Part shown: piece after piece, positions 1 to 55,497 of the stretch
Position numbering within the stretch: the first letter of the stretch is position 1
How the letters are laid out: the number at the start of each line of letters is the position of its first letter
Origin: Bacteroidia bacterium
Lineage (GTDB): Bacteria; Bacteroidota; Bacteroidia; AKYH767-A; JBBKVM01
Length of the DNA stretch: 64,000 bases
Direction of reading: 5' to 3'
NCBI GenBank assembly: GCA_037968415.1
Contig: JBBKVM010000002.1
Location: forward strand, 6,030 to 70,029
Position numbers and translations under genes: made by a program
The notes under the pieces: generated by a model
Database searches by the model: none
Seen by the model: only the letters and a program-made list of their open reading frames with translations
Told to the model about the DNA's origin: nothing

Positions 1-495
1 CCTTTCTGGGCCAAAGATTCTAAGATTGGATTTAAGATGATTAACGCGCGAGCGGAAGGTATCTTGGAATCGAAAGTATATCGCAAACCATTGGAAAAAA
101 GAAGATGCCTCATTCCTGCCGATGGTTTCTATGAATGGCGCAAAGTGGGTAAACAAAAACTCCCAATTCGGTTTACCCGAAAAGATGATGGGCTTTTTGC
201 ATTTGCCGGTATTTATGAAACCTGGAAAGACCCAAAGAATGGAAATGTCCATTCGTTTTCAATAATCACCTGTCCGCCCAACGAACTTGTAAAACCGGTG
301 CACGACCGGATGCCTGTGATACTGGATGAAAAAGAGGAAATAAATTGGTTGGATAATCACCTCAAACCCGAAGACGCCATGTCCATGCTGAAGCCATTTC
401 CTACAGAGCAAATGCGTGCTTATGAAGTTTCTACTTTGGTAAATTCAGCAGCCAACAATATGCCCGAAATCATTGAAGCAATCAACTCCAATTAG
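1..495 (+). CDS. SOS response-associated peptidase (SRAP/YedK, DUF159 family); 5' end lies outside the window
   Basis: The reading frame is open from nt 1, so the first-Met ORF at 37 is not the true start. The translated C-terminal half carries the SRAP signature ...NARAEG..KP.FR..RRCLIPADGFYEW..PV..RMPVIL; the N-terminal catalytic Cys2 must lie upstream. The stop overlaps the convergent nrdJ by 4 nt. Confidence 0.7.
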   Translation, partial: PFWAKDSKIGFKMINARAEGILESKVYRKPLEKRRCLIPADGFYEWRKVGKQKLPIRFTRKDDGLFAFAGIYETWKDPKNGNVHSFSIITCPPNELVKPVHDRMPVILDEKEEINWLDNHLKPEDAMSMLKPFPTEQMRAYEVSTLVNSAANNMPEIIEAINSN

Positions 496-3062
496 CCGCA
501 TTTAGTTTGCCCGCAGCTTTTACATTTTAAGCATCCTTCTTCATATAACAATCCTTCGGCATCGCCACACTCGGGGCATCGTCTGTCTGCTGCCACCGTG
601 CCATCAGGAATAAACTTCTTGAGCGCACGCTCAATGCCGTTTCTCCACGAGTTGATGGAAGCATTGTCGAGGTGAAGGTTGGTAACCAAATCCACCACTT
701 GTGGCAACGGCATGCCATGACGCAGTATGCCTGAGATAAGTTTCGCGTAGTTCCAGAATTCTTTGTCGAACGATCGCGACAATCCTTCTATCGTTGTTTT
801 ATAACCTTCCTTGTCTTCGAACTGAAAATCGTAACGCGATTTGCCACCGCCATTTTTGCTTTTTATCACCCACCCGCGGTTTACCCAAGTTGGAATTACA
901 AAAGTGTCTTCCGCTTTTCCGGTAAAAATTTCATACGGTCTGGCACCCATCACACCCACTACGGCTATCCACTTCTCATTGTTGTTGGTAAATCTAACCA
1001 CCTCTGCTTCGAGCACTGTGGGGCGCTTAGGCGCATGCGTTTCTACAATGTCGCCCGTTTGTTTGCCACCGGATTTATCATCTTGCGCCATCAACACACC
1101 ACTGCGCGATCCATCACGATACACAGTGATACCCTTAAGACCTTTGCGCCAAGCTTGCATATATATATCCGCCACCTTTTCAGGCTTTACATCGTTGGGC
1201 AAATTGATGGTACTGCTGATAGAATGTGTTACATACTTTTGAACCACGGCTTGCAATTCCACACGCTTCAACCAATCTATCTCACCTGCGGTGGAACCAA
1301 AGTAAGGACTCTTTTCATAGTCGCTTTCGTTGGCTATCTCCATCCAGGTTTTCAATTTAGAGTGGTACACATCAAACTCCTGCCACGCGTCACCCATGTG
1401 ATCGGTGAAATCTATTTTGGCATTTTTGTCGCTGGCATTAACTTTTTTTCTTCGCTTATAAGCCAGCATAAACACGGGTTCCAACCCAGATGAAGTTTGC
1501 GACAAAATACTTAGCGTACCGGTAGGCGCCACCGTGCTGATGGAAATATTACGTCTGCCGTGTTTCAGCATGCGCGCGGTAAGTTCAGGAAATTCTTGTT
1601 CCATCATGTTTACAAAAGCCGAAGTCTTTTCCACCTTTGGATCAAAGGCTTCGAACTTGCCACGCTCTATGGCCATGTCAATGGAACTGTCGAATTCTGC
1701 AGTGCATTTGGTGCGCATCAGTTGATCTATTTCCATCAGTGCCTCGTCAGAATCGAAGCCAAAGCCGAGTGCGGCCATGGCGTCAGCCAGCGCAGTAAAG
1801 CCCAGGCCCGTGCGTCTGCCTTTGCGGCCTGCGTCTTGCAATAGTTTCCATGTGTCGGTTTCTACTTGCTTGATGGCAGCCGGCTCGGGATCACTGCTAA
1901 CTTTACCCAATATGCGGTCTATTGCTTCCAGCTCGAGGTCCACCAGGTCGTCCATCAAGCGCTGTGCTTCATAGGTTACTTCGTAAAACTTTTTGTAGTT
2001 GAACTTAGCTTCGGGTGTAAAGGGCTTGTCAACAAAATTGTAGAGGTTGATAGCGATGAGCCTGCAACTGTCGCCACCCTGCATCGCTATTTCTGAGCAC
2101 GGGTTGGTTGATACATTTCGAAAGCCGGGATACACAGAGGAAGTAGAATACTGGTGCTGCCGGTCCCAGAAAATAAGCCCTGGCTCGGCTGTGTTGTGTG
2201 CACAGGCTACAATGCTATTCCATAGCTCGGTGGCCTTTACAGTTTTATTGTATTGGGGTTGTGCTGCGTCAATGGGCCAACGCAGCGTATAATCTTCATC
2301 ATTCTCCACTGCGAGCATAAACTCATCCGACAATCTGATGGAGATGTTGGCACCCGTTACCCGACTCAAATCTTGTTTGATAGTGATAAAGTTTTCGATA
2401 TCCGGATGGGCTATGTCCATGGTGATCATGAGTGCGCCCCTGCGCCCATTCTGCGCTACCTCGCGCGTGGTGTTGCTGAAGCGCTCCATATATGACACTG
2501 CACCTGTTGTGGTACCGGCAGAGTTTGAAACACTGGCACCGGCCGGACGTAATGTGCTAAGGTCTATACCCACACCACACCTTCGCTTGAATAGTTGCGC
2601 CAATTGTTGATCGGTATAGAAAATGCCGCCATAAGAATCGCAAATCTCTGGCAGAACAATGCAGTTGGATAGGGACGCAAACACATTCTTGTTACCCAGT
2701 GAAGACATAACGCTGCCCTGTGGTATGATGTATTTAAAGTCTTTGAAGTAGTTGTAGATTTTATCCACATTGAGAAGCCCACGCTGGCGGCCATACTCCG
2801 ACAGTTCGCTGTGGCTGAATTGCTTATCAGCATACTTCTGCTCTACACGGCCAAACTCGCGGGCCATGCGATGATGCATATCATCGGGTGTGGATTCCAG
2901 ATAGTTGCCAGCCTTGTCTTTCATGGCGTACTTGCTCATCCAGGTGCTGGTGGCAAGTTCATCACCGCCAAAATAGGCAGTGGCTTTTGTTTTTACTTCG
3001 CTTATTTCCAGGTAGGGAGTTGTTTCGGTATTCATAATTTCATCTTCACTTTCTGAGTTCAA
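492..3062 (-). CDS. nrdJ: adenosylcobalamin-dependent (class II) ribonucleotide reductase
   Basis: 856 aa with an N-terminal ...TSTWMSKYAMKD... motif typical of NrdJ, a large catalytic barrel region and a C-terminal Cys-rich tail (CPECG...CLKCKSCG) common in class II RNRs. No ATP-cone or NrdA-style N-terminus is seen. Confidence 0.8.
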   Translation of the reverse strand: MNSESEDEIMNTETTPYLEISEVKTKATAYFGGDELATSTWMSKYAMKDKAGNYLESTPDDMHHRMAREFGRVEQKYADKQFSHSELSEYGRQRGLLNVDKIYNYFKDFKYIIPQGSVMSSLGNKNVFASLSNCIVLPEICDSYGGIFYTDQQLAQLFKRRCGVGIDLSTLRPAGASVSNSAGTTTGAVSYMERFSNTTREVAQNGRRGALMITMDIAHPDIENFITIKQDLSRVTGANISIRLSDEFMLAVENDEDYTLRWPIDAAQPQYNKTVKATELWNSIVACAHNTAEPGLIFWDRQHQYSTSSVYPGFRNVSTNPCSEIAMQGGDSCRLIAINLYNFVDKPFTPEAKFNYKKFYEVTYEAQRLMDDLVDLELEAIDRILGKVSSDPEPAAIKQVETDTWKLLQDAGRKGRRTGLGFTALADAMAALGFGFDSDEALMEIDQLMRTKCTAEFDSSIDMAIERGKFEAFDPKVEKTSAFVNMMEQEFPELTARMLKHGRRNISISTVAPTGTLSILSQTSSGLEPVFMLAYKRRKKVNASDKNAKIDFTDHMGDAWQEFDVYHSKLKTWMEIANESDYEKSPYFGSTAGEIDWLKRVELQAVVQKYVTHSISSTINLPNDVKPEKVADIYMQAWRKGLKGITVYRDGSRSGVLMAQDDKSGGKQTGDIVETHAPKRPTVLEAEVVRFTNNNEKWIAVVGVMGARPYEIFTGKAEDTFVIPTWVNRGWVIKSKNGGGKSRYDFQFEDKEGYKTTIEGLSRSFDKEFWNYAKLISGILRHGMPLPQVVDLVTNLHLDNASINSWRNGIERALKKFIPDGTVAADRRCPECGDAEGLLYEEGCLKCKSCGQTKCG

Positions 3063-3343
3063 TTTTCATGAGGGTCGGCAAGATATAAACATCGAACTGG
3101 GAGCGAAAATTACAGCGCCATGATTTATAAACATTGAGCGACCATTTTTCAACAAAGCGCCATTTTACGCCTATTTCAAAGAAATTTAATTTCAATAAAC
3201 TGAACTCAAAAGTTAATTATTTTTTTCGTATTGGCCAAGCCATCCAGCGTCTACATGCCGATCTTTTATCTCCATATTAAAAGCTTATTAAAAACCTCAG
3301 ACCAATTGAATTATTATATACCTTGTTTCGTAAATCACTCATC

Positions 3344-6007
3344 ATGACAAAATATTTAATCTCCGTTTTGTGTATTCTATATATAGCACCCATGCCTGGG
3401 TTTAGTTCTAACCTAAACTCAAGCACTTGTTCAAAATCCGAAAACAATCCTCCGTTGAGTGTATTTCTCAATACAGTGAGTTCTGCATGCACACTAAACA
3501 ATGGAAGTATCAATACAAATGTTTCAGGGGGCACCCTTCCAATTACTTACTTATGGTCCACAGGTGCAACTACAGCAAACATCCAGAACTTGTCGGCAGG
3601 CACCTACATGGTGACGGTAACTGATTTTACAGGAAGCACAGCAAGTGCTTCAGCAGCAGTGGCAAACCAATTGAACACCACGGTTGCATTTACTTACGCA
3701 GGAAAATTCCCTTGTGCTGGCCAATGTAATGGATCTGTTTTCGTGATGGATTCAATGATAAACGGAATGCCCCCCTACTCTTATTCTCCCAGTGCGGGAA
3801 CCATGATTCCCAACAGCCCGGGAGCAGGGTCCACAGAGTTTGCAAACTTGTGTGATAACACAATACTTAATGTCACTGTCACCGATGCGCTTGGGTGTAC
3901 CGGTGGGCAAAACATCCCGATTGGGGGCGGTCCGCCTGTTCAAAACCCTTCGTTCGTAATCACTCCGGCTTGCAATTCGCTTGCGAATGGATCAGTAACC
4001 ATATCCAATCTTTCTTGGGCAGCATGGAATTGTGATGCCATGCGTATCTGGCTTACGGACAACTGTTGCAATTTATGCTGCTTTGTGTCCAATGCCATAC
4101 AGGGCGTTCCGTTAAATTTAGCTGCCGGCAATTATCTGGTTGAGACTTACTGCGCCACGGCTTTGCCAGGATACGAGTGCCCGCAATATTTTCCTTTCAC
4201 CATTCCTGACCTGGGCCCCACATGCAGCACCGTGCAAGGCGATGCTTTTGTAGACCTAAATGGCAACTGTGTAAAAAACGTGGGCGACATCAACTTGCCT
4301 AATACTGTGATAGAGTTCACTCCGGGCCCATGGTATGCTTACACAAATAGTGCAGGACACTATTCAACCAATATACCCTGGGGCAACTACAACGTGGTGC
4401 ATTATCCACCTGCCGGGCTCGTGCAACTCTGCCCCGCCAACCCTTTTCCTATCACCTTGTCCTCGTCTAACACCAACGCTACCATAAATTTTGCCGACAC
4501 CAGCGCCATTCCATTTGACATCGTTGCACACATCAGCAATGGAACCGCAAGACCTGGTTTTGATTTTATGTATGCCGTGAAAGCACAAAATAACAGCTAC
4601 ACACCCAGTGGTGTCATCACGGTCACACTCAATTTCGATCCTATGCTCTCATTTGTATCGGCTAACCCTGCGCCTTTCTCTACCTCTTCGGGGCAAGTTG
4701 TGTGGCAATTTAATTCCATCACCAATTTTCAATCTAGTGTTGCCACAGTCACATTGAATGTGCCCGCCAACCCTGCATTGATAGGCACCTCGCTCTCCGC
4801 CAACGTTGCCATGCAGGCCGCCACCACAGAACCCAATACAGCCAACAACTCGGCCACCACCACACACACTATCACAGGATCATTCGACCCCAATGTAAAA
4901 CATGTCCAGCCTTTTGGCGCTTTTTTACCCGCCATTACAAATGAAATTAAGTACACTATTCAGTTTCAAAATACCGGCAACGACACCGCTTTCACCGTAG
5001 AGTTAATAGACACGCTCAGCAGCAATTTGCGTGTGGGCACTTTTGTGGCGGGAGCCTCTTCGCACCCATACACCACAGAGATTACGGGGCAAGGTGTCCT
5101 TCATTTTTATTTCAACAACATAAACTTACCCGACTCTACCACTGACGAAGCCCGCAGCCACGGCTTTGTTTCGTTTACGATAAAACCAAAAGTCAATCTT
5201 CCGCATAACACCAGCATCACCAATCGATCGAATATCATTTTTGATTTCAATCCACCTATCAATACCAACACCACACAAAGTATAGTTGACCTTACACTCG
5301 CCATCAATACCACTGCCGACACTATTTGTCAAGGGCAATCGGTCACACTCACCATGATACCCGAACTGACTAACACATCCTGGCGTTGGCGTGCGGGCAC
5401 ATGCAACAGTACTATCATAAGCACAAGCAATTCAATTACCATTACACCCACCACCACCAACACTTACTTTGTCCGTGATTCATTGGGCACCATACCCGTT
5501 GGCAGCTGTTACCGAAAAACGATTGTGGTGTTGCCTGCGCCCACCACTCCTTTCATCACACAAAATTTTGACACTTTATTTTCCAGCGCTAGTAGTGGAA
5601 ATCAATGGTACCTTAATGGTAATGTGATTGCTGGCGCCATATCGCCCACATATATTCCTACGCAAAGCGGAAGTTATTCTGTTGTGACCACGGCTGCCAA
5701 TGGATGCACCGGTTCATCAGCTGCCTACATGTTTATCACCACCTTGACAGTTGATTTGATCAGGAATGCCGGTATAAAAGTATTTCCGAATCCAACAACC
5801 AGTCAACTTTTCGTTGAAATCGATGAAGAACATCCTTCTCTTAAGAAAATCATTGTTTACGATTGCATTGGAAATGTTGTGATGGAACGGTCCGGAATTA
5901 GTGAAAATAAATTCTCGATTGATCTTACTGAATATATTCCCGGCATTTATTTTCTAAAAATAATCAGCATCAATGGAGTGGAATTAACCAAAGTGTTTAA
6001 AATTTAA
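3344..6007 (+). CDS. T9SS-sorted cell-surface adhesin-like protein (SprB repeats + DUF11 conserved-repeat domain + Por_Secre_tail CTD), paralog 1 of 3
   Basis: Signal peptide, then SprB-type repeats (C..NGSI...GGT.PYTY.WS.G.TT..I.NLSAGTY.VTVTD). A DUF11-like block (SFDPN.K.V.P.G...NYTIQFQNTGNDTAFTV) and a C-terminal T9SS type-A sorting domain (VFPNPTT..LFVEI....IIVYD.IGNVV.....LTEYIPGIYFLKI) follow. The ORF caller's TTG at 3323 is more likely replaced by the ATG at 3344. Confidence 0.75.
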   Translation: MTKYLISVLCILYIAPMPGFSSNLNSSTCSKSENNPPLSVFLNTVSSACTLNNGSINTNVSGGTLPITYLWSTGATTANIQNLSAGTYMVTVTDFTGSTASASAAVANQLNTTVAFTYAGKFPCAGQCNGSVFVMDSMINGMPPYSYSPSAGTMIPNSPGAGSTEFANLCDNTILNVTVTDALGCTGGQNIPIGGGPPVQNPSFVITPACNSLANGSVTISNLSWAAWNCDAMRIWLTDNCCNLCCFVSNAIQGVPLNLAAGNYLVETYCATALPGYECPQYFPFTIPDLGPTCSTVQGDAFVDLNGNCVKNVGDINLPNTVIEFTPGPWYAYTNSAGHYSTNIPWGNYNVVHYPPAGLVQLCPANPFPITLSSSNTNATINFADTSAIPFDIVAHISNGTARPGFDFMYAVKAQNNSYTPSGVITVTLNFDPMLSFVSANPAPFSTSSGQVVWQFNSITNFQSSVATVTLNVPANPALIGTSLSANVAMQAATTEPNTANNSATTTHTITGSFDPNVKHVQPFGAFLPAITNEIKYTIQFQNTGNDTAFTVELIDTLSSNLRVGTFVAGASSHPYTTEITGQGVLHFYFNNINLPDSTTDEARSHGFVSFTIKPKVNLPHNTSITNRSNIIFDFNPPINTNTTQSIVDLTLAINTTADTICQGQSVTLTMIPELTNTSWRWRAGTCNSTIISTSNSITITPTTTNTYFVRDSLGTIPVGSCYRKTIVVLPAPTTPFITQNFDTLFSSASSGNQWYLNGNVIAGAISPTYIPTQSGSYSVVTTAANGCTGSSAAYMFITTLTVDLIRNAGIKVFPNPTTSQLFVEIDEEHPSLKKIIVYDCIGNVVMERSGISENKFSIDLTEYIPGIYFLKIISINGVELTKVFKI

Positions 6008-8692: not shown

Positions 8693-11320
8693 ATGAAGAA
8701 CCTGCTTAAAAAACTATTGCTATACACAATATTGTCACTGATCACTTCGGCAAGCTGTTTTGCATTTAATGTCTATTTAAATGGTGTGAATGAGTATTGC
8801 AACGGATCCAATGGGATGGTATGGGTGAATTCGATCAACGGTGGCACAGCACCCTATTCTTATTCATGGTCCACGGGTTCCAACAACGATACCATTTTCA
8901 ACTTGTCGGCAGGGAGTTATTCCGTGGTGGTAACTGATTTTACTGGGGCTACTGCAACTGCCATTTCTTCAATTAGTAACTATAATTTAAACATTCAGGG
9001 AGCCTGGTCATATGTGAGTTGTTCAGCGCCAGGGATGCATCCTTGTCCATTCGCTACGCCTTGCAACGGAACCATTGGGTGGTGCGCAAGCATTCTTGGC
9101 GGAACACCTCCCTACTCTATTTTCAGCAACATCGGAACCACAGGAACCTCGCCCAATGGAGATTTATATGTTACCGGCTTGTGTAACATGGACAACTTAA
9201 ATGTTTCCATCACGGACTCTCAGGGATGTGGTGACGTAGTATCGATCACAGTGGTGGGGCCTGCATATCCAAATCCAAGTTTTATTCCATCGGGAGCTTG
9301 CAATGGCCAAAATAACGGATCCGTAGCTGTCAGCATTGCGTTTTCAGGATGGGGGGATCAGGGAAGTCTCCTGGATTCATTGCAAAACCCACTTTCTCAA
9401 TGGAGCAATTTTCCCGGTAACATTGCCACTTTTAATAATCTGTATGCAGGCAATTATTTTCTTGAGTATGGCTACTCAGGTGCTGTATCCCAACCTTGCT
9501 CCGGTTTGTTCCCTTTTGCGATTCCAGACTTGGGTCCAACCTGCAGCAATGTGAACGGCAGCGCGTTTGTAGATTTAAATACCAACTGCACAAACGATCC
9601 AAGCGACATTGCGTTGCCAAACACCATTGTGGAATTTACCCCAGGCCCTTACTATGCGATCACAAATGTAAATGGAACATTTTCCACCAACTTGCCGTGG
9701 GGCAATTACAGTGTGGTGCATTATCCCCCATCAGGATTATTGCAACTATGTCCTGCTAATCCTTTGCCGATTACCCTTTCAGCTTTAACACCCACAGTCA
9801 CCGTGAACTTTGCCGATACCAGCGCCATCCCGTTTGACATTTCAGCCAAAATCAGCCATGGTATCGCAAGGCCGGGATTCGATTTTCAGTATGGCCTCAG
9901 AGTCGATAACCACACTTATGTTGCCAGTGGGATGCTGACCGTAACGCTGAATTATGACCCGTTGCTTTCATTTGTATCTGCCAACCCTACACCATTAAGC
10001 ACTTCTCCCGGCCAGGTGGTCTGGCAGCTTAATTCTGTTTCAAATTTCCTTTGGACCAATGCCAGCGTTGTGTTTAATGTGCCTGCCAATCCAGCGCTCA
10101 TCGGAACGCAACTCAATGCAACGGTAACGGTAAATGCTACAACCACCGAACCAAACATCACCAACAATTCGGCTACCACCACCCATCTCATTTCAGGTTC
10201 ATTCGACCCCAATGAAAAACAAGTCACGCCATCGGGGAAATTCCTGCCCGCCACAAACGGGTTGTTCAATTACACCATCCAATTCCAGAACACCGGTAAC
10301 GATACCGCCTTCACCGTGCAGATCATCGACACGCTGAGCGCAAACCTGCAGGTGACCAGTTTTGTGCAGGGAGCCTCTTCGCACCCATACACCACGGAAG
10401 TCAGCGGCCAGGGCGTGCTGCGGTTTACTTTCAACAACATCTACCTACCCGACTCCACCACTGACGAAGCCCGCAGCCACGGCTTTGTTTCGTTTACGAT
10501 AAAACCAAAAGTCAATCTTCCGCATAACACCAACATCACGAATCGATCGAATATTATTTTTGATTTCAACCCACCCATCAATACCAACACTACGCAAAGT
10601 ACTGTTGACCTCACACTCGCCATCAATACCACTGCCGACACTGTCTGCCAAGGTCAATCGGTTACACTCACTATGATTCCCGAACTGACAAACACATCCT
10701 GGCGCTGGCGCGCGGGCACTTGCAACAGCACTATTATAGGCACCGGCAATTCCATCACACTCACTCCTACTGCCACCAATACCTATTATGTCCGAGATTC
10801 ATTGGGCACTATACCTGTTGGCAGCTGTTACCGAAAAACAATTGTGGTGTTGCCCACCCCCGCCACACCTTCCATCACACAAAATTTTGACACGTTGTTC
10901 TCCAGTGCCGCCAATGGAAACCAGTGGTACCTGAATGGCAATGTGATTGTTGGCGCCCTATCTCCCGCATTTATTCCTACGCAAAGTGGAAGTTATTCCG
11001 TAGTGACCACGGCTACCAATGGATGCACTAGATCATCAGCAGCGTATATGTTTATCACCACTTCACAAGTGGGTGTATCAGCAAATCAACATACCATCTA
11101 CCCCAACCCCACTACAGGCATGATTACCACAGAATTGGGCGACACTAATTTTGAAGACGCTGCTATTGTAATCACCAATGTGTTGGGAGAAAAAATAATC
11201 GAAGTAATTTCTCACACCTCCGAATTCTCTTTTGATCTCACAGATTATCCGCAGGGAATATATTTTATCAATTTATCAGTTAACGGTTTAACCACCTCTC
11301 GCAAAATAGTTCGGATGTAA
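8693..11320 (+). CDS. T9SS-sorted adhesin-like protein (SprB repeats + DUF11 + CTD), paralog 3 of 3
   Basis: Same architecture. The CTD is ...IYPNPTTGMITTELGD....AIVITNVLGEKI....LTDYPQGIYFINL. The ORF caller's TTG start at 8675 would overlap paralog 2 by 8 nt; the ATG at 8693 (MKNLLKKLL signal peptide) is preferred. Confidence 0.75.
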   Translation: MKNLLKKLLLYTILSLITSASCFAFNVYLNGVNEYCNGSNGMVWVNSINGGTAPYSYSWSTGSNNDTIFNLSAGSYSVVVTDFTGATATAISSISNYNLNIQGAWSYVSCSAPGMHPCPFATPCNGTIGWCASILGGTPPYSIFSNIGTTGTSPNGDLYVTGLCNMDNLNVSITDSQGCGDVVSITVVGPAYPNPSFIPSGACNGQNNGSVAVSIAFSGWGDQGSLLDSLQNPLSQWSNFPGNIATFNNLYAGNYFLEYGYSGAVSQPCSGLFPFAIPDLGPTCSNVNGSAFVDLNTNCTNDPSDIALPNTIVEFTPGPYYAITNVNGTFSTNLPWGNYSVVHYPPSGLLQLCPANPLPITLSALTPTVTVNFADTSAIPFDISAKISHGIARPGFDFQYGLRVDNHTYVASGMLTVTLNYDPLLSFVSANPTPLSTSPGQVVWQLNSVSNFLWTNASVVFNVPANPALIGTQLNATVTVNATTTEPNITNNSATTTHLISGSFDPNEKQVTPSGKFLPATNGLFNYTIQFQNTGNDTAFTVQIIDTLSANLQVTSFVQGASSHPYTTEVSGQGVLRFTFNNIYLPDSTTDEARSHGFVSFTIKPKVNLPHNTNITNRSNIIFDFNPPINTNTTQSTVDLTLAINTTADTVCQGQSVTLTMIPELTNTSWRWRAGTCNSTIIGTGNSITLTPTATNTYYVRDSLGTIPVGSCYRKTIVVLPTPATPSITQNFDTLFSSAANGNQWYLNGNVIVGALSPAFIPTQSGSYSVVTTATNGCTRSSAAYMFITTSQVGVSANQHTIYPNPTTGMITTELGDTNFEDAAIVITNVLGEKIIEVISHTSEFSFDLTDYPQGIYFINLSVNGLTTSRKIVRM

Positions 11321-12264: not shown

Positions 12265-12738
12265 TCAGCAAAATCGTGGGTCGGCCAGGGCGGGCAATCG
12301 CGCCATGCGGCTTACCTCCAACATGGGGAAGTCAAACTCCTCCACCACCTTGCCTTCCAGCAGGTACACGCCATATCCGGTAAAGGGATTTTTTTTGAGT
12401 GAGGGCGGGAAGTGTGTGGTGTCATAAAATTTTCCTTCGCGGTCGAAGAAAGTGCCAAAGATCATAAGTTCTCTGCGCACGGTGGTCACGTATTTGCGTG
12501 TCACCAGGTTGCCGAGCATGCGCACGGTGCGGCCGGTGTGGGCGGGCAGTTCGCGCGCCAGCACGCCTCCGCGGTAGGTCGTCTTGAGCATATCGAAATG
12601 CGTGCACGACACCGGAAAACCCAGCAGTTCCATTTCGTCATAGGCATCCTCGAGCGGATGGTGTACCAGCGCGGGCAGCTCAAACGCGCGCGGGGCGGTG
12701 CGAAAAAGCTCTTCCTGTATTTTGAGTTCGTATTTCAT
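12265..12738 (-). pseudogene. dnaE2: C-terminal fragment of a DnaE2/ImuC-like error-prone DNA polymerase (OB-fold region); gene interrupted upstream
   Basis: GC-rich ORF encoding ...MELLGFPVSCTHFDML (the ELLGF.SGHP-like post-HhH motif) followed by the DnaE OB-fold signature VRMLGNLVTRKYVTTVRRELMIFGTFFDREGKFYDTT. The open frame runs only about 12 codons upstream of the Met, to a stop at 12775, into AT-rich DNA. Its N-terminal partner is the ORF at 19276-21741. Confidence 0.6.
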
Positions 12739-12851
12739 GGGCGTTTTGTGACGAAAATATTGACGAAAATGGTTTTAAAAATATAGCAATAAAAAGGTGA
12801 ACACCGTTCACTTTTTACTTAACTTACATGTTGCATCAAAAAGAAGCATCA

Positions 12852-14435: not shown

Positions 14436-14662
14436 CGCGCTAATTATTCTGTTTTTTCCCCTTCGATAATTTGCCTTTACCGTTGGTAATAAAATTACCA
14501 TGCATTGAAAACCCCTTCGGATTTTAATTTCGTATTTCACAGCGTATCATGACAATTCTTCAGGCAGGTTAGCCTAAACAATCTTAAAAAAACCTGAATG
14601 CTTGTAAACAGTCTTAATAAGCATTAAGAACTAAGAAGTTGCATGAAACAAAGCAGAAAAAA

Positions 14663-15500: not shown

Positions 15501-15769
15501 GGTGAGATTTTTAAGTTAAATAAACATGACAATTGGACAATTTATCATTTCATTTTGGGATTGTCAATACCCTATCATGTAATTTATTTCGCCACCGCCA
15601 TGTGGGTTTCATTAATATTGCAACATAACTTTCCTCACATAGTTTATACTCGTGGCCTTGTCCTCAAAGTGCAACAGTTACACACCTTTGTGAGTCTGAG
15701 AACCATCCATGACAGTTTCTTGAACAAATGAAGCATTGAATTACTCTTGCGCTAACACATTGCGAATGT

Positions 15770-19134: not shown

Positions 19135-19275
19135 AATCCTATGATTTAATTACTTTAAAATCAACGGTTATTCCATTTTCATTTTACAAGGTACAGTTGA
19201 TGAATGAATAATCAAGTGGTTTTATTGCAGTCTCAAAAATTCAAAGATTTTTTTTGGTCGTATTGCCTTTCCGTT

Positions 19276-21741
19276 TCACTTCGCCACTGCCATGTGGGCC
19301 TCCCACAGCAGGGCTTGCTTGCTGTGGCCGGTAAATCGCAGTGCCCCCGCGCGTATGAGTATGATGAGCTGGTCGCGCGTGATGCCGGTGCGCGTTACAA
19401 AATCATCGAGCGACAGGTAGGGCCCTCCGCGCTCGCGCTCGTGCGGTATGGCCGCGGCCGCCCCGCTCTCCAGGTCTTTGATGTGGATGAAGCCCAGCCA
19501 GATGGTGGTGCCGCTGATGGTGGTGAGGTGCTCGCTATGGTTTACACACGGGTTCTCTATGTGCGCGCCCGCCAGCCGCGCCTCGTTTACATACACCCAT
19601 GTGGAATAAAAGCCGCCAAAGTTGTTGATCACCGCCACCATAAACTCCAGCGGATAGTGCGCCTTGAGGTACAGACTCTGATAGCTCTCCACGGCAAAAC
19701 TGGCCGAGTGCGCCTTGGAGAATGAGTACCCCGAAAAACTTTCTATCTGCCGCCACACCTCCTGCGCCAGCGTGTCGGAGTAGCCGCGGTCGCGGCAGTT
19801 GTCGAAAAACTTTTTGACGATGCGGTCGAGCTCGGCCCGCCCGCGAAACTTGCCGCTCATGGCCCTGCGCAGCACATCGGCCTCGCTCAGGTCGAGCCCC
19901 GCAAAATGGTGCGCCACCTTGATCACATCTTCCTGGTACACCATCACCCCGTAGGTTTCTTTGAGCAGCGCTTCCATCACCGGATGCAGGTATTCAAAAT
20001 CGTTGGGGTGATGAAAGCGGTGTATGTAGGCGCGCATCATACCGCTTTTGGCCACGCCCGGGCGGATAATGGAGCTGGCAGCCACCAGCGAAATATAGTT
20101 GTCGCAGCGCAGCTTCTTGAGCAGCCCGCGCATGGCAGGGCTCTCCACATAAAAACAACCGATGGTGTCGCCTTTGCGCAGTTGCTCGGCCACCTGCGGA
20201 TCTTGTTTGAAGCGGGGCACATCGTGTATGTCGATGCGGGTGCCGCGGTTGCGCTGTATGATGTTTACACTGTCTTGTATGTGTCCGATGCCGCGCTGGC
20301 TCAGTATGTCGAGTTTCTCGAAGCCTATCTCTTCGGCCACATACATATCAAACTGTGTGGTGGCAAAGCCTTTGGGCGGCATGTCGAGGGCGGTGTAGCT
20401 GAAGATGGGCTCTTCGCTCACCAGTATGCCGCCCGCGTGGATGCTGCGCAGGTTGGGATAGTCGGCTATGCGCTTGCCGAGCGAAAAAATATTGCGCGCT
20501 ATGTCGTCACATCTCTCTTCGGGAGGCGGGTTCTCCACCAGCGCGTCTATCTCTGTTTTGGGCAGGCCGTACACCTTGCCCAGCTCGCGGATGATGCTCT
20601 TGCCTTTGAAGGTGCTGTAGGTAGCCATAAGGGCGGTGTGGCTGCTGCCGTAGCGTTTGAACACGTAGTCGATAACCTGGTCGCGGTCGCGCCACGAGTA
20701 GTCGATGTCGAAGTCGGGCGGGCTGGTGCGCGCGGGGTTGATAAAGCGTTCGAAGTAGAGGTCGAGTTCGATGGGATCTACATCGGTGATGCGCAGGCAG
20801 TAGGCCACAATGCTGTTGGCTCCGCTGCCACGACCCACGTGGTAGAAGCCGCGCGACATGCTGTAGCGTATCACGTCCCAGGTGATGAGGAAGTACGCGA
20901 GAAAGCCAAGCCGGGTGATCACTTCCAGCTCGTGGGCGATGCGTTTCTGCGCCTCTTTGTTGCGCAGGCCGTAGCGGTATTCCATGCCTTCGTGCGCGAG
21001 TTTTTCGAGCAGCAGGCGGTCGTCATAGGCGTTGCCGGTAAATGTCTTTCTGTTTTTCACCACGCGGTAGTCGAAGTCGAAAGAGCAGTCGGCCGCGAGT
21101 TGCGAGGCGTTGGCAATCAGTTCGGGGTATGCCGCGCAGCGGGCGGCCAGCGCGGCCGGTGTGTGCACAACCTCGCCCGCATGGCATGTGGCCGTAGGCG
21201 GCAGCTTGCTCAGCACCACATTGTGATCGATGGCGCGCAGCAGGCGGTGCACCTGCATGTCGGTCGGCTGGGCGAGCGTAACGGGCTGCATGAGCACCAT
21301 GCGCTGTCGCTGGCGGGCGGTGGTGGTGGCCAGCCGCGAGAGTGCCGCCAGCGGCACGCCTATGTATTCGTTGTCGCGCAGCGGATGGGTGGTGCCCAGC
21401 GGATACACCACGTGCACATGGTCGAAAACAGGCGCGCGCGCGGGCAACGCCTGTGCGGCTATATGATAGTGCGACACAAAAGCGTTGATCTCGGCAAAGC
21501 CGCGGTTGTTGCGCGCCAGGCACGTGTACAGCAATGTGTCGCCATGCCTTATCTCCATGCCCGCCACGGGGGTGATGCCCGCGGTGCGGCAGGCTTTTAC
21601 AAAATCGAACGTGCCCGACACATTGTTGATGTCGGTGAGGGCAAGCACCTGCGCGCCCGCGGCAGAGGCCTGCTGCACGAGCGCCTCTACAGGCAGGGTG
21701 CCGTAGCGCAGGCTGTAATAGGAATGGCAGTTGAGGTACAT
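19276..21741 (-). pseudogene. dnaE2: N-terminal 821-aa fragment of DnaE2/ImuC-like error-prone DNA polymerase (PHP domain through HhH); truncated by insertion
   Basis: MYLNCHSYYSLRYGTLPVEALV (PHP start), then the pol III alpha palm/fingers core, ending in the HhH-like segment ...GGPYLSLDDFVTRTGITRDQLIILIRAGALRFTGHSKQALLWEAHMAVAK and a stop. Composition is visibly GC-rich and changes abruptly to AT-rich at 19275. The continuation is at 12265-12738. Confidence 0.65.
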
Positions 21742-21754
21742 CGTTAAAAAAAGT

Positions 21755-21766
21755 AATGACGATTAT
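21755..21766. promoter_or_regulatory. candidate SOS operator motif AATGACGATTAT within the palindrome TAATGA-N11-TCATTA (dnaE2 / DnaJ-protein divergent promoter region)
   Basis: The 12-mer matches 11 of 12 positions with the reverse complement of 34024-34035 in the lexA-like/dinB intergenic region. A 22-nt extended alignment has about 16 of 22 identities. Confidence 0.3.
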
Positions 21767-21869
21767 TTCATCATTAACAGGACGAATAAGTTAGCAACAT
21801 AAATCATAAAAACCGCAAAAAAGTTGCGGCCAATATGTACTTTTAAGACACACAGGCAGTTGTAAAACC

Positions 21870-22676
21870 ATGGCCGATCGGCATTATCACATATTGGGCA
21901 TACCACCGGGCGCAGGCAAAACAGAAATACGCAAGGCGTATCGCAGAAAAGTGTTGCTGCTGCACCCCGACCGCAACCCGTCACCGGCAGCGCGCGAAGA
22001 GTTTTTGCGTGTGCGCGAGGCCTATGATGCGTTGATGGAAAGAGGCGCGCAGCCCGTGCGCCCAGCGCCAAGGCCCGATGCCAAACCCTATCCGAAATAT
22101 TCGCGCCAGGCCAACGACCCGTTTTACAAAGCACGGTGGCAGGAGTACCGCAGACAACAACAGGCCAGACGTGCAGAAGAAGAAATAGAAAACACAAGCC
22201 TCTACTCTTTTCTGGTGTACACGGCCCGCGCGGTGGCCATTGCAGGTACGGCCTTGTGCCTGGCACTGCTGGCCGATTTTGTGTTGCCTGCACATACACA
22301 AGAGCAAACCATACTCAACCGAAATATTGAGATAGTGCAACAGCGAAGCATCGCAATTGAAAACAGAAGAATACATACCGAACGCTATCAAATACCGGTG
22401 CAGCGTGAAATGTTTTTCCTAATAGCCGAAGGCGACAAAATTACGGTGCAGGCAAGCCCGTTGTTTGAAATTCCGAGGCGGATGACGTACACAGGAACAG
22501 AGTTCAAGCCCGCTTATGGAATCTTCTCAAACTTCGCCATGTTTGCCATTGCATTATTTGCATTGTCGCTTGCCGGCTTGTGGTCATGGAAGCGCAAAGG
22601 CGATTTGCTGATCAATAGTTTTTTCAATCTGGCGCTGCTGATTATCGTGCTGTTTATCATGAATGCTTCGCATTGA
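21870..22676 (+). CDS. DnaJ (J-domain) membrane protein
   Basis: N-terminal J domain (YHILGIPPGAGKTEIRKAYRRKVLLLHPDRNPS...EEFLRVREAYDAL with HPD), a basic linker, then three to four predicted TM helices. The 5' half is GC-rich. Confidence 0.6.
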   Translation: MADRHYHILGIPPGAGKTEIRKAYRRKVLLLHPDRNPSPAAREEFLRVREAYDALMERGAQPVRPAPRPDAKPYPKYSRQANDPFYKARWQEYRRQQQARRAEEEIENTSLYSFLVYTARAVAIAGTALCLALLADFVLPAHTQEQTILNRNIEIVQQRSIAIENRRIHTERYQIPVQREMFFLIAEGDKITVQASPLFEIPRRMTYTGTEFKPAYGIFSNFAMFAIALFALSLAGLWSWKRKGDLLINSFFNLALLIIVLFIMNASH

Positions 22677-32842: not shown

Positions 32843-33997
32843 TCACCGTATGGTCACCGCGCGCATTACGGCTTCTTCGCCAAAGCGTTTTTTGATGCGG
32901 TCCATGGCCTGGTAGAGGCCGGCCAGGCGCTGGGTGTCTTCAAAAAGATTGATCTGCATGGAGCCTTGCACAAGGTGCGAGAGCCTTACGCCCACCAGCC
33001 GTATGAGCATGCGCCTGCTGTACAACTTGTCGAATAGTTCGTGGGCATGGGCCATCAGCACGTGGTCGGCCGCGGTGTAGGGTATGCGCAGCTGGCGTGT
33101 TTCGGTGTCGAAGTTGGCGTAGCGTATTTTCACCGTGATGCAAGAGGTGAGCCTGTTGCGGCTGCGCAGTTTGAAGGCCAGCTCTTCGGCCATGCCGGTA
33201 AGCAGCGCGCGAATGCCGGTTACATCTATGGTGTCTTTGTCGAAGGTGGTCTCGGTGCTTATGGACTTGCGTTCGCTGTACGCCACCACGGGGCTGTTGT
33301 CTATGCCGTTGGCTTTTTTCCATATCACCGTGCCTGCCTTGCCCAGCACGCGGGCAAGCATCTCGGGCGGCGTGCGCTGTAGCGTGTGTATGGTGGCTAT
33401 GCCCATGCCGCGTAGCAGCCGGAAGGTGGCCTCGCCTATCATGGGTATGCGCGCGATGGAAAGGGGCGAGAGAAAAGTCTTTTCGGTGCCGTGATGTATC
33501 TGTATGCGGCCATCGGGCTTGGCTTCGTTGGTCCCTATTTTAGACACGGTCTTATTGGCCGACAGGCCAAAAGAAATGGGCAGCCCTGTCTCGCGCAGTA
33601 TGCCCGCCTTCAGCTCATCGGTGTACTGCAGGCATCCGTGAAAACGATCCATGCCGGTAAGGTCAATATAAAACTCATCGATAGATGCCTTCTCATACAA
33701 CGGTACACTTTCGGCTATCACCTCGGTAACCAGCCCCGAATAGCGCGAGTAAGCCTCCATGTCGCCACGTATCACCAGTGCATCGGGGCACAACTGGCGC
33801 GCCATGCGCATGGGCATGGCCGAGCGCACGCCATACACGCGCGCCTCGTAGCTGCACGAGGCCACCACGCCCCTGTCGCTGAGGCCACCAATAATAAGCG
33901 GCCGCCCGGCCAGCGCGCTATTACGCAGCCGCTCCACGCTCACAAAAAACGTGTCCAGATCCATGTGTACGATATGCCGCGGCTCACTGCTATGCAT
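32843..33997 (-). CDS. dinB: DNA polymerase IV (Y-family, catalytically competent DinB-like)
   Basis: HMDLDTFFVSVE and SIDEFYIDLT carry the D-D-E catalytic residues in the positions of E. coli DinB (VDMDCFF / SLDEAYLDVT). The size is 384 aa. The gene is GC-rich and divergently arranged from the LexA-like repressor. Confidence 0.8.
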   Translation of the reverse strand: MHSSEPRHIVHMDLDTFFVSVERLRNSALAGRPLIIGGLSDRGVVASCSYEARVYGVRSAMPMRMARQLCPDALVIRGDMEAYSRYSGLVTEVIAESVPLYEKASIDEFYIDLTGMDRFHGCLQYTDELKAGILRETGLPISFGLSANKTVSKIGTNEAKPDGRIQIHHGTEKTFLSPLSIARIPMIGEATFRLLRGMGIATIHTLQRTPPEMLARVLGKAGTVIWKKANGIDNSPVVAYSERKSISTETTFDKDTIDVTGIRALLTGMAEELAFKLRSRNRLTSCITVKIRYANFDTETRQLRIPYTAADHVLMAHAHELFDKLYSRRMLIRLVGVRLSHLVQGSMQINLFEDTQRLAGLYQAMDRIKKRFGEEAVMRAVTIR

Positions 33998-34023
33998 GGG
34001 TAACTCTTTCTTTTTACGACTAT

Positions 34024-34035
34024 ATTATCGTCATT
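34024..34035. promoter_or_regulatory. candidate SOS operator (reverse complement AATGACGATAAT; flanked by the inverted repeat GACTATA-N12-TATAGTC) between dinB and the lexA-like gene
   Basis: It shares 11 of 12 nt with 21755-21766 upstream of dnaE2. It sits in the 120-nt divergent promoter region of the repressor and Pol IV genes. Confidence 0.3.
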
Positions 34036-34118
34036 TTATAGTCAATTAAATTAGCAATTTGTTTGCAAATTTATTACCTTGCACTATAATTTTTTATTCA
34101 CAACAAGGAGGAACACAC

Positions 34119-34922
34119 ATGCTGTATTTTGGAAAAAACACCCAACTGCTGCGCAAGCGCAAAAACAGATCGCAGGAAGAAATGGCCACCGCGCTGGGCA
34201 TTACGCGCACCTCACTCAGCGGATACGAACTGGGCAACAACCAGCCACCCTACGAATTGCTCATCGCCATTTCCGATTATTTTAAGGTACCCGTTGACGT
34301 GCTGCTGCGCACCAGCCTGGCAAAAATGAGCGAGTTCAAACTGAGCGAACTGGAGCGCGGCTATGACCACGCACACATCACCGGATCGCAACTGCGTGTG
34401 CTGGCCACCACCACCGACAGCAACAACACCGAAAACACCGAACTGGTACCCGTAAAAGCCAAGGCCGGCTACACCCGCGGATATGCCGACCCCGATTACA
34501 TAAAAGTACTGCCCGCATTCAGCCTGCCCTTTCTCTCGCGCGAACGCAAGTACCGCACCTTCCCCATCAGTGGCGACTCTATGCCGCCCGTAGCGGACGG
34601 ATCGTGGGTGACAGGTGAATACCTACAGAACTGGAACCACATCAAAAACGGATTGCCATACATCATTGTCACCGCTGACGAAGGCATCGTATTTAAAATG
34701 GTGCACAACCATATTAAAGACAAAGGCTCACTGCTGCTGTGCTCTACCAACCCACTGTACAAGCCTTACGAAATAGCCGTAAGCGATGTGCTCGAAGTAT
34801 GGAAATTCGTACACTTCATAAGTTCCGAACTGCCCGAAAGCAACCAACCACGACAGGACCTCACCACCGCAGTCATCAACCTGCAGAAAGAAGTAGCCCA
34901 GCTAAAAATGAAACTGGACTAA
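34119..34922 (+). CDS. LexA-like SOS repressor (HTH_XRE DNA-binding domain + S24 self-cleaving peptidase domain)
   Basis: N-terminal XRE HTH (EEMATALGITRTSLSGYELGNNQP), an A-G cleavage-site candidate (VKAKAGYT), a catalytic Ser motif GDSM (ISGDSMPPV) and a downstream Lys (VFKMV). The ATG at 34119 is preceded by AAGGAGG; the ORF caller's upstream start at 34059 is unlikely. GC-rich. Confidence 0.75.
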   Translation: MLYFGKNTQLLRKRKNRSQEEMATALGITRTSLSGYELGNNQPPYELLIAISDYFKVPVDVLLRTSLAKMSEFKLSELERGYDHAHITGSQLRVLATTTDSNNTENTELVPVKAKAGYTRGYADPDYIKVLPAFSLPFLSRERKYRTFPISGDSMPPVADGSWVTGEYLQNWNHIKNGLPYIIVTADEGIVFKMVHNHIKDKGSLLLCSTNPLYKPYEIAVSDVLEVWKFVHFISSELPESNQPRQDLTTAVINLQKEVAQLKMKLD

Positions 34923-41879: not shown

Positions 41880-41953
41880 TAGCGAGGACGGGAATTGAAC
41901 CCGTGACCTCAGGGTTATGAATCCTGCGCTCTAACCACCTGAGCTACCTCGCC
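41880..41953 (-). tRNA. tRNA-Met (anticodon CAT; elongator Met or lysidine-modified Ile2 cannot be distinguished by eye)
   Basis: The reverse complement reads GGCGAGGTAGCTCAGGTGGTTAGAGCGCAGGATTCATAACCCTGAGGTCACGGGTTCAATTCCCGTCCTCGCTA. It has a cloverleaf with GCTC/GAGC D-stem, a TTCATAA anticodon loop, an ACGGG/CCCGT T-stem with TTCAATT loop, and a G1-U72 wobble. CCA is not encoded. Confidence 0.85.
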
Positions 41954-54462: not shown

Positions 54463-55497
54463 TTGAGAACAGTGGATGCGGAAGCACGTACATATATACT
54501 AGGTATAGAATCATCTTGCGATGATACTTCTGCGGCCGTATTGTGTAATGACAAAGTCCTTGCCAATGTGGTGGCGGGGCAGGACATTCATAAGCTATAT
54601 GGTGGTGTGGTACCTGAGTTGGCATCACGTGCGCATATGGCCAACATAGTGCCAGTAGTAAGTGAGGCCTTGAGGCAAGCAAACATTGACAAGAGCCAAT
54701 TAAGCGCAGTGGCCTTTACGCGCGGGCCGGGCCTTATGGGCGCACTGCTGGTGGGCACATCTTTTGCCAAATCGCTGGCGCTAGCCTTACGCATACCACT
54801 TATAGAAGTGAATCATATGCAAGCACATGTGATGGCTCATTTTATTGCTGACCCTGATAAGCAAAAACCACCCTACCCATTTCTTTGTTTGACCGTGTCG
54901 GGCGGGCACACCCAAATCGTAAAAGTAAACGGATACAATAAAATGGAGGTGCTCGGCACCACGCGCGATGACGCTGTGGGCGAGGCTTTCGACAAGGCTG
55001 CTAAAACCTTGGGATTGCCATACCCCGGAGGTCCGCTCATAGATAAATATGCCGCGCTAGGAAATGCCTCCGCTTTTAAATTTCCTTTCCCGCGCATCGA
55101 TGGTTTGGATTATAGTTTTAGCGGTTTGAAAACTGCCATACTTTATTTCGTGCGCGACTCAATAAAAGTAGATGCACAATTCCTTGACCACAACTTGAAT
55201 GATTTATGCGCGAGCATCCAACACACAATCGTTTCCATATTGATAGATAAATTTCTGGCTGCAGGCGCACAAACCGGCATCACACATTTGGCGCTGGCAG
55301 GTGGTGTGTCGGCCAACAGCGGCCTGCGCGCGGCACTGCATACCGAGTGCGAAAAGCAGGGGTTGCAAGCATACATTCCTAAATTTGAATACTGCACAGA
55401 CAATGCGGCCATGATCGGAATTGCAGGGTATTACAAGTTTCTTGACGAAGACTTTGCCCCACAAAGCATCACAGCCATTGCCCGGTACCCCATTTAG
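54463..55497 (+). CDS. tsaD: tRNA N6-adenosine threonylcarbamoyltransferase
   Basis: ILGIESSCDDTSAAV N-terminus and Kae1/TsaD metal-binding motifs (…NHMQAHV…GGVSAN..L…). Confidence 0.9.
   Translation: MRTVDAEARTYILGIESSCDDTSAAVLCNDKVLANVVAGQDIHKLYGGVVPELASRAHMANIVPVVSEALRQANIDKSQLSAVAFTRGPGLMGALLVGTSFAKSLALALRIPLIEVNHMQAHVMAHFIADPDKQKPPYPFLCLTVSGGHTQIVKVNGYNKMEVLGTTRDDAVGEAFDKAAKTLGLPYPGGPLIDKYAALGNASAFKFPFPRIDGLDYSFSGLKTAILYFVRDSIKVDAQFLDHNLNDLCASIQHTIVSILIDKFLAAGAQTGITHLALAGGVSANSGLRAALHTECEKQGLQAYIPKFEYCTDNAAMIGIAGYYKFLDEDFAPQSITAIARYPI

Follow-up and report, generated by a model that had tools for sequence, protein, structure and literature searches.

The 64,000-nucleotide stretch of DNA analysed here, referred to as the window, comes from a Bacteroidia bacterium (GenBank assembly GCA_037968415.1, contig JBBKVM010000002.1, positions 6,030 to 70,029) and encodes a LexA-like repressor and two DNA polymerases whose promoter regions carry related candidate operators. 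The repressor, a protein of 267 amino acids with helix-turn-helix (HTH) and S24 domains (HTH_3+S24, Pfam), is encoded at 34119..34922 on the plus strand. Divergent from it, at 32843..33997 on the minus strand, lies the gene for DNA polymerase IV (DinB, 384 amino acids; Pfam IMS, IMS_C). This protein scores 274 against the NCBIfam NF002677 cut-off of 256, keeps both catalytic motifs, HMDLDTFF and SIDEFY, and has only Pol IV enzymes as its best solved-structure matches. The gene for the second polymerase, a DnaE-type (DnaE2-like) enzyme, is located 12 kb from the Pol IV gene. It consists of an N-terminal open reading frame (ORF) of 821 amino acids at 19276..21741 on the minus strand (Pfam PHP, DNA_pol3_alpha, finger, HHH_6) and a detached C-terminal fragment, a 157-amino-acid ORF at 12265..12738 on the same strand, 6.5 kb downstream. 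The DnaE-type protein scores below the NCBIfam 'error-prone polymerase' cut-off. A DnaJ-domain protein is encoded at 21870-22676 on the plus strand (Pfam). The initial annotation of this DNA had given the same identities to these genes, and they hold.

The repressor is a member of the phage-CI-like family of non-canonical LexA proteins that Sanchez-Osuna et al. (2021; PMC8565304) described in Bacteroidota. It matches HTH_3 at 2.5e-13 and Peptidase_S24 at 8e-5, the latter with 22.8 bits, just under the curated cut-off of 23.3. The features of a canonical LexA were not found, as the repressor has no Pfam match to the LexA_DNA_bind winged HTH (PF01726) and classical SOS boxes are lacking from the two promoter regions. 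Ala116-Gly117, Ser154 and Lys193 are invariant in 31 homologues, and they share columns with the AG, S119 and K156 of LexA in the published alignment (PMC8565304). The C-terminal domain is 48% identical to that of P. actiniarum LexA (E = 9e-57) and 30% identical to that of S. agarivorans LexA. By sequence, the window repressor belongs to the lineage of the CTAA group, which includes the P. actiniarum protein.

The initial annotation had drawn attention to a 12-mer shared by the two promoter regions, and its strings and coordinates are all correct when checked against the letters of the window. In the gap between the repressor and Pol IV genes, ATTATCGTCATT lies at 34024-34035 (reverse complement AATGACGATAAT), enclosed by the inverted repeat GACTATA (34018-34024)-N12-TATAGTC (34037-34043), which spans 34018-34043. 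Upstream of the DnaE-type gene, AATGACGATTAT lies at 21755-21766, enclosed by TAATGA (21754-21759)-N11-TCATTA (21771-21776). The best 22-nt match of both regions is 16/22, which bears out the approximate figure given. As had been stated, neither intergenic region contains a known LexA box of the type CTGT-N8-ACAG or CGAACRNRYGTTYC. CTAA-N5-TTAG, GGA-N5-TCC and TTAC-N5-GTAA are likewise missing from both.

The simplest explanation of the shared 12-mer would be chance, that is, AT-rich promoter regions that share 11 of 12 positions without a common regulatory site. The two regions, of 121 and 128 nt with 28% and 33% GC, were compared with 1000 shuffled pairs. Matches of at least 11/12 were reached in 14% of these pairs and matches of at least 16/22 in 17%, so that neither figure is above chance. 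The 12-mer pattern with at most one mismatch occurs twice in the whole window, compared to 0.95 occurrences expected. As stand-alone evidence the 12-mer and the 22-mer were therefore rejected.

Comparison with relatives provides evidence of a different kind. Homologues of the repressor number in the thousands, and the closest are 60-73% identical. A first set comprised 80 genomic loci encoding repressor orthologues. All 4-mer dyads with spacings of 0-14 were enumerated in the 160 nt upstream, with the window excluded, in 69 non-redundant regions. The top dyad was TGAC-N9-GTCA, present in 15/69 regions compared to a shuffle mean of 0.10 and maximum of 1, and no shuffle had a dyad with a count above 7. 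The dyad keeps strictly to N9, with TGAC/GTCA at any other spacing found in 0 or 1 region. The published dyads are not enriched in these promoters: CTAA-N5-TTAG occurs in 0/69, with one unrelated match in the 64 kb of the window, and GGA-N5-TCC in 3/69.

Across the whole loci of the first set there are 54 exact sites in 49 of the 80 loci, compared to 6.2 expected. Of these sites, 21 are at most 250 nt and 26 are 500-1500 nt upstream of the repressor gene, and none lies inside the repressor gene or in the 2 kb after its start in any of the 80 loci. In the more distant class, one or two small ORF6N/Rha-like genes stand between operator and repressor gene, and the operators still occupy the intergenic region next to the divergent Pol IV gene. 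A Pol IV gene is upstream and divergent in 39/80 loci, and six loci keep the ancestral order of Pol IV followed by the DnaE-type gene. The sites also tend to be paired, with 27/53 exact sites having a partner at +23 (at least 6/8 core matches).

The second set consisted of 80 metagenomic loci fetched through the DnaE-type protein, 79 of which were analysable. In 66/79 loci, the gene that immediately precedes the DnaE-type gene in the same orientation encodes Pol IV, and in 52 of these the divergent repressor gene is also seen. The repressors in this set are 44-58% identical to the window protein, and the intergenic regions carry TGATTAnnnnnTAATCA. TGAT-N9-ATCA was found in 40/47 non-redundant regions (shuffle mean 0.36, maximum 3), again strictly with N9. 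Two exact sites are present in 29 regions, and 27 of these 29 pairs are spaced exactly 23 bp. Intermediates such as TGATTAAAAACACGTCA also occur. Taken together, the TGAC-type and TGAT-type sets give the general form TGAY-N9-RTCA, with 17-bp sites in a 17+6+17 layout. Phylogenetic footprinting, which the initial annotation had suggested, thus shows that orthologous intergenic regions conserve this form (15/69 and 40/47), and conserved dyads precede the repressor gene both in the window and in more than 100 relatives. The cassette with tandem sites is also present in two named metagenome-assembled genomes (MAGs), one from the Lentimicrobiaceae (order Bacteroidales) and one labelled 'Bacteroidales bacterium'.

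In the window, the conserved register reads CGAC-N9-GTCA (34017-34033) in one region and TGAC-N9-ATCA (21757-21773) in the other. The shared 12-mer is the half-site TGACG together with part of the spacer of the 17-bp dyad TGAY-N9-RTCA, and it could be aligned in reverse complement because the site is palindromic. The palindromes GACTATA-N12-TATAGTC and TAATGA-N11-TCATTA, which the initial annotation had pointed out, are specific to the window and do not represent the conserved register.

Each of the two regions contains one 40-nt two-site module composed of a good 17-bp palindrome, a 6-bp gap and a weaker second site. In the module between dinB and the repressor gene (34017-34056), the candidate operator O1 occupies 34017..34033 (CGACTATATTATCGTCA on the plus strand, TGACGATAATATAGTCG on the minus strand), with the start codon of Pol IV 19 nt away. 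It has 7/8 positions of the TGAY-N9-RTCA core and includes the right-hand part of the 12-mer region. O1 aligns with site 1, TGACGATATTATTGTCA, of L001, the closest repressor/Pol IV locus; over the 40-nt modules 32/40 positions are identical, which 0/150 shuffles reach. The weak candidate second operator O2 (34040..34056, AGTCAATTAAATTAGCA) begins 23 bp after O1, has 4/8 core positions and aligns with site 2 of L001, TGACGATTAAATTAGCA, at the conserved +23 offset. Because its sequence is degenerate, O2 is assigned from position and alignment only. In the module upstream of the DnaE-type gene (21757-21796), the candidate operator O1' at 21757..21773 (TGACGATTATTTCATCA) is an exact match to TGAY-N9-RTCA and lies 15 nt from the DnaE-type start codon at 21741. 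The weak candidate second operator O2' (21780..21796, GGACGAATAAGTTAGCA; 5/8 core positions) begins 23 bp after O1', and O2' and O2 both end in ...TTAGCA at the same offset. This module is identical to that of L001 at 27/40 positions, also reached by 0/150 shuffles. When the two window modules are aligned in the orientation set by the polymerase genes, both of which lie to the left on the minus strand, their similarity is significant at 40-47 nt (28/47 identical, 0.4% of shuffles; 26/40, p ~0.007).

A position weight matrix (PWM) was built from orthologous sites only, with the window left out. Its best match in the 64 kb is 21756-21774 (ATGACGATTATTTCATCAT, 14.9 bits) and its second best is 34016-34034 (ACGACTATATTATCGTCAT, 11.4 bits). 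The argument here is where the matches fall, since the two regions make up 249 of the 64,000 nt, and the intergenic share of the window is 9.5%. Even if matches were confined to intergenic DNA, two good ones in just these regions would arise about once in several hundred cases by the authors' own estimate. A third match, at 54549 between the TamB and TsaD genes, is treated as background because it has no link to repair.

These observations bear directly on the possibility of chance. In its favour, the shuffled pairs equal the 12-mer and 22-mer, and the PWM scores of the window are within the range of random 64-kb sequences. On the other hand, the two window sites are the top two of a matrix that was built without them, the motif shows overwhelming enrichment and a fixed position in both of the independently chosen locus sets, the identities are significant at the level of the module, and the closest relative has the same module before its own stand-alone DnaE-type gene. 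A chance resemblance is thus very unlikely. The proposal of a candidate operator common to both promoters stands as a genuine one, conserved beside the repressor and Pol IV genes and in the relative just mentioned, although the statistic of the 12-mer alone was insufficient to establish it.

The relative in question is the locus of the closest DnaE-type homologue, P0122, which is 74% identical to the window protein and is encoded by an intact gene of 980 amino acids. This locus, L162, is in the same MAG (GCA_037969175.1) as L001. The P0122 gene is on a separate contig, behind an unrelated DinB_2-family gene. The top two PWM matches in its 17 kb are TGACGATATTATTGTCT and TGACGAAAATACCGTCA (23.3 and 14.4), which form a tandem pair 23 bp apart with the second site ending 16 nt before the ATG of the DnaE-type gene. 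The first of these, TGACGATATTATTGTCT, differs from site 1 of L001 at one position. All six pairwise comparisons of 40-nt modules among the two window regions, L001 and L162 gave p <= 0.013, in the register of the sites. The modules in the window and the sister MAG therefore indicate that the displaced polymerase gene of a broken cassette carries an operator module of its own, which is the strongest evidence for a functional site on the dnaE side in the window. Among the set-2 loci, only 1/79 DnaE-type genes has a relaxed upstream site of its own; this upstream test is mostly inapplicable to the orthologues because 66/79 of the genes follow Pol IV in the cassette.

The DnaE-type gene of the window is not intact. 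Residues 1-819 of P0122 map to 21741-19291, and residues 826-979 map to 12723-12268 with 69% identity (E = 2e-64). The N-terminal ORF thus lacks the last ~160 amino acids of its relatives, whose length is ~980 amino acids. The ~6.5 kb between the two pieces contain four Por_Secre_tail genes, encoding cargo of the type IX secretion system (T9SS), and a TTHB210-like gene. The GC content is 31-40% across 15.5-19 kb, compared to 57-64% in the polymerase ORF. Short imperfect copies of the junctions are present inside this DNA (15583-15606 resembles 19275-19298, and 14521-14539 resembles 12719-12737), and no transposase or integrase was found among the ORFs scanned. The split could represent an insertion, a rearrangement or an artefact of the MAG assembly.

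The interruption raises the possibility that the dnaE-side module is a non-functional relic, copied along with a gene that was relocated and later broken. The lower-GC DNA that splits the gene would fit this explanation, as would the degeneracy of O2'. In contrast, O1' matches the core exactly and scores highest in the window with the PWM, and the sister MAG combines an intact 980-amino-acid gene with an even better tandem pair, which points to selection on the module after relocation. A relic therefore seems highly improbable.

Two other sequences in the vicinity of the split resemble the motif. An exact TGAT-N9-ATCA (TGATGAATGAATAATCA) is located at 19198-19214, in the gap that immediately follows the stop codon of the N-terminal DnaE ORF and precedes a T9SS-cargo gene. 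Together with the dnaE-side operator, it is the only intergenic exact core match in the window, where ~0.5 would be expected by chance. In addition, two direct copies of TGACGAAAAT, consisting of half-site and spacer, are spaced 12 bp apart at 12749-12772, and the detached C-terminal ORF begins 11 nt downstream of them. With the PWM they score no more than 5.2. On the minus strand this sequence reads CGTC-N9-GTCA, a form that recurs as a third site in high-GC set-1 loci.

Inverted repeats in the 5' leaders of the polymerase genes could also function as RNA hairpins (GACUAUA...UAUAGUC and UAAUGA...UCAUUA) instead of DNA operators. The minimum-energy folds use exactly these repeats, with energies of -6.1 to -7.8 kcal/mol and z of -1.6 to -2.3. 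However, these hairpins are weak, as 7-17 of 200 shuffles fold at least equally well, and any palindromic operator folds in this way. Moreover, the registers of the initial annotation are not seen in the orthologous regions compared. The elements conserved among relatives are TGAY/RTCA with a fixed 9-bp spacing and a free spacer, and not pairing potential. Rfam has no match at either region and finds only a tRNA at 41880-41953 in the window. A role as RNA structures is extremely unlikely.

If the sites are DNA-binding sites, their ligand could be a protein other than the adjacent repressor, such as the ORF6N/Rha-like proteins or a global regulator. The one or two ORF6N genes between operator and repressor gene in high-GC set-1 loci are consistent with this, but neither the window nor L001 has such genes, and none is among those called in L163 and L164. 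Throughout, the only gene for a DNA-binding protein seen beside the motif is the HTH_3+S24 gene, and family members that have been validated bind dyads in their own promoters (PMC8565304). Several residues of the HTH also change with the type of half-site. A number of HTH positions differ between TGAC-type and TGAT-type loci, including a recognition-helix Ser/Thr at 35/37 versus 36/38, and in the set-1 locus L050 Val41/Gln43 were gained independently, together with a TGAT...ATCA site. This covariation of HTH residues and operator is suggestive of a pairing between protein and site. Recognition by another binder is, on this evidence, unlikely.

The ORF6N/Rha-like genes are of the phage antirepressor type, with KilA-N-like DNA-binding domains. 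They are common in high-GC Flavobacteriales MAG loci, apparently in one operon with the LexA-like gene, and examples include L012 2212-2961, L018 1807-2367 and 2364-2933, and L027 1743-2360. The same high-GC clade contains a 22-nt repeat with the consensus CATAAGACAGTCCCGCAACCTT, which is present in 7.9 tandem copies at L053 911-1084, directly upstream of the LexA-like start codon, and as single copies in L018, L020, L027, L030, L041, L056, L058 and L060. This repeat departs from the N9 dyad rule.

A number of set-2 loci show an expansion: the gap between the repressor and Pol IV genes has grown to 350-700 nt by insertions (L086, L088, L090, L101, L126, L147/L148, L153, L156). The inserted blocks include short GC-rich or tandem repeats, for example AGTGCCTAAAGTGCCTAGAGTGCC and the repeated CAACTAAACTACCAA of L164, as well as small stretches that resemble ORFs. 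The operator pair remains beside the repressor gene in these expanded gaps.

A number of points weigh against the TGAY-N9-RTCA modules being operators of the repressor. The PWM scores of 14.9 and 11.4 bits are modest and in themselves unremarkable, because random 64-kb sequences average ~12.4. For the bare 8-position core, the window has 10 matches where ~5 are expected, eight of them in coding DNA, and O1 has a C instead of T at position 1, in addition to the low core matches of O2 and O2'. The DnaE-type gene under the second module is interrupted, and the covariation of protein and DNA is largely confounded by phylogeny. Furthermore, no site was found at a classical SOS gene, of which the analysis covered the promoter of the SOS-response-associated peptidase (SRAP) gene in L162, the closest relative. 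The genes that bear sites are those for Pol IV, the DnaE-type polymerase and the repressor, as well as a PIF1-like helicase in one genome. Despite these points, the conservation, fixed spacing, tandem arrangement and gene context of the motif make it probable that the modules are operators of the adjacent HTH_3+S24 repressor, through which it would control itself and the two polymerase genes. For defining a regulon within the window, the bare core was rejected as too poor in information, in view of its 10 matches.

The helicase site is an exact TGAC-N9-GTCA at L036 413-429, 36 nt upstream of a gene for a PIF1-like helicase of 796 amino acids. The protein has a C-terminal HTH_40 domain, and its gene is directly upstream of the LexA-like gene. 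The helicase is a possible extra member of the regulon, in this one genome only. Of the classical SOS-associated genes, part of an SRAP gene is present at the edge of the window (1-483, plus strand), 65% identical to the SRAP of the sister MAG; the window begins inside this gene, so that its promoter falls beyond the edge. Convergent with it, at 492-3062 on the minus strand, is a large ribonucleotide reductase-like gene, judged from its translation only.

In the proposed mechanism, a dimer of the adjacent repressor, as the most likely binder, would bind the 17-bp dyads. The two sites, 23 bp or about two helical turns apart, may be bound cooperatively as in the OR region of phage lambda, and the bound repressor would block three genes: its own, the divergent Pol IV gene and the relocated DnaE-type gene. 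Upon DNA damage, RecA-stimulated self-cleavage at Ala116-Gly117, catalysed by the predicted Ser154/Lys193 dyad, would release the repressor, and the polymerases would be induced. The -7 consensus of Bacteroidetes promoters is TAnnTTTG. A putative -7 box of this type, TAAATTTG, lies on the minus strand at 34066..34073 and matches this consensus perfectly; it would presumably drive Pol IV transcription through O2 and O1. With this placement, both operators would presumably fall between the transcription start and the Pol IV ATG. Candidate -7 boxes for the repressor gene are located at 34058-34065 and 34087-34094, where they are abutted or overlapped by the same operators.

The initial annotation had extended damage inducibility, provided the motif is real, to the J-domain gene that is divergent from the DnaE-type gene. 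This extension is not supported by the relatives, as no J-domain homologue was found within ~2.5 kb in the 79 DnaE-type loci or among the called genes of L162. A terminator-like hairpin also lies between the module and the J-domain gene, at 21811..21831 on the minus strand, where a consensus scan finds an 8-pair stem followed by a T-run. It reads GGCCGCAAC-TTTTT-TGCGGTT with the T-run and is situated between the start of the J-domain gene and the dnaE-side module. Such a minus-strand hairpin would shield the DnaE-type gene from read-through.

Elsewhere in the window, two paralogous T9SS cargo proteins of ~880 amino acids each are encoded on the plus strand at 3323-6007 and 8693-11320. Both have the domain order SprB repeat, DUF11, DUF7619, Ig_7 and Por_Secre_tail. 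Por_Secre_tail genes are unusually plentiful in the window.

It was not until 2021 that the SOS regulators of Bacteroidota were identified, together with two operator motifs, CTAA-N5-TTAG and GGA-N5-TCC, the latter in 17-mers of the kind TTTGGAATTATTCCAAA (Sanchez-Osuna et al., 2021; PMC8565304). These two motifs and N5 variants were validated by electrophoretic mobility shift assays, so that the motif of the family is better characterised than the initial annotation had assumed, but the window uses neither. The search for diverged sites in that study was confined to perfect dyads whose spacer is 5 bp long. For many members of the family no site could be recognised, and both groups were stated to be absent from the Bacteroidales (PMC8565304). 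Neither TGAC nor GTCA is found in the text of that paper, and no report of a TGAY-N9-RTCA motif was found in the papers after 2021 that were searched. Nevertheless, the entry ATTA-TTGTT-TAAT for Flavobacteriaceae 10Alg115 in Table S10 is the inner part of the set-2 sequence TGATTAnnnnnTAATCA. This match indicates that the authors had touched this class of sites, with its outer N9-spaced half-sites unrecognised.

With a third operator, many Flavobacteriales-like and Bacteroidales-like genomes, which form a large and mostly uncultured group, would gain a candidate binding site. Such an operator would also imply that the spacing of the half-sites changes within the family besides their sequence, N9 here compared to the published N5, and it would link the phage-CI ancestry of the family to a CI-like tandem layout of operators. 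The relocated polymerase gene with an operator module of its own would represent a concrete case of regulon maintenance. In addition, the PWM and mobility-shift probes would provide a direct handle on the control of mutagenic polymerases in these environmental bacteria.

Among the characterized systems, the closest is that of P. actiniarum LexA (WP_025606010.1, CTAA-N5-TTAG group). Like the window repressor, this protein has a CI/XRE-type HTH with an S24 domain, an Ala-Gly cleavage site and a Ser/Lys dyad. Its own promoter contains a palindromic operator, and translesion polymerase genes are under its control (PMC8565304), as is proposed here for the window repressor. The operators differ, as the candidate of the window is the 17-bp TGAY-N9-RTCA and that of P. 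actiniarum the 13-bp CTAA-N5-TTAG. The half-sites in the window are 2 bp further out on each side and occur in tandem pairs 23 bp apart, and the targets seen here so far are only the polymerase genes and the repressor gene. S. agarivorans LexA (WP_075324850.1, GGA-N5-TCC group) is from the same protein family and also has a 17-bp AT-rich palindromic site, TTTGGAATTATTCCAAA, but the sequence and position of its half-sites differ and its C-terminal domain is much less similar to that of the window protein. A LexA paralogue of Elizabethkingia anophelis binds TTAC-AAATT-GTAA between its own gene and that of a divergent error-prone polymerase, which is induced by mitomycin C (PMC8565304). Compared to such N5 dyads, the inner ATTA/TAAT is not conserved in the clade of the window, where the information is in the outer TGAC/GTCA.

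The polymerase cassette itself resembles the imuA-imuB-dnaE2 cassette, which likewise has a Y-family gene followed by a DnaE-type gene under a LexA-type repressor. In contrast to the catalytically dead ImuB, the Y-family enzyme here retains both catalytic motifs (DxD and SIDE) and passes the Pol IV cut-off. No imuA was called within or beside the cassette in the loci with gene calls (L163 and L164).

The phage lambda CI protein shares with the window repressor a CI-type HTH and a self-cleaving S24 domain. In the lambda OR and OL regions, 17-bp partly symmetric operators are arranged in tandem with gaps of 6-7 bp, ~23-24 bp from centre to centre. The layout of 17 bp, 6 bp and 17 bp found here, in 27/29 set-2 pairs and with a +23 partner for 27/53 set-1 sites, has the same geometry. 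The regulator of the window differs from CI in that it is chromosomal, is associated with polymerase genes and has no cro-like partner or lytic genes. It seems fairly likely that this arrangement represents a third widespread specificity class of the family, in which lambda-like tandem 17-bp operators stand over a cassette of Pol IV and DnaE-type genes in many uncultured Bacteroidia, including Bacteroidales, and in which the 40-nt module is a portable unit that accompanies the polymerase gene when the cassette is broken up. Overall, the system is a new putative operator variant within the known non-canonical LexA family of Bacteroidota and not a new kind of system.

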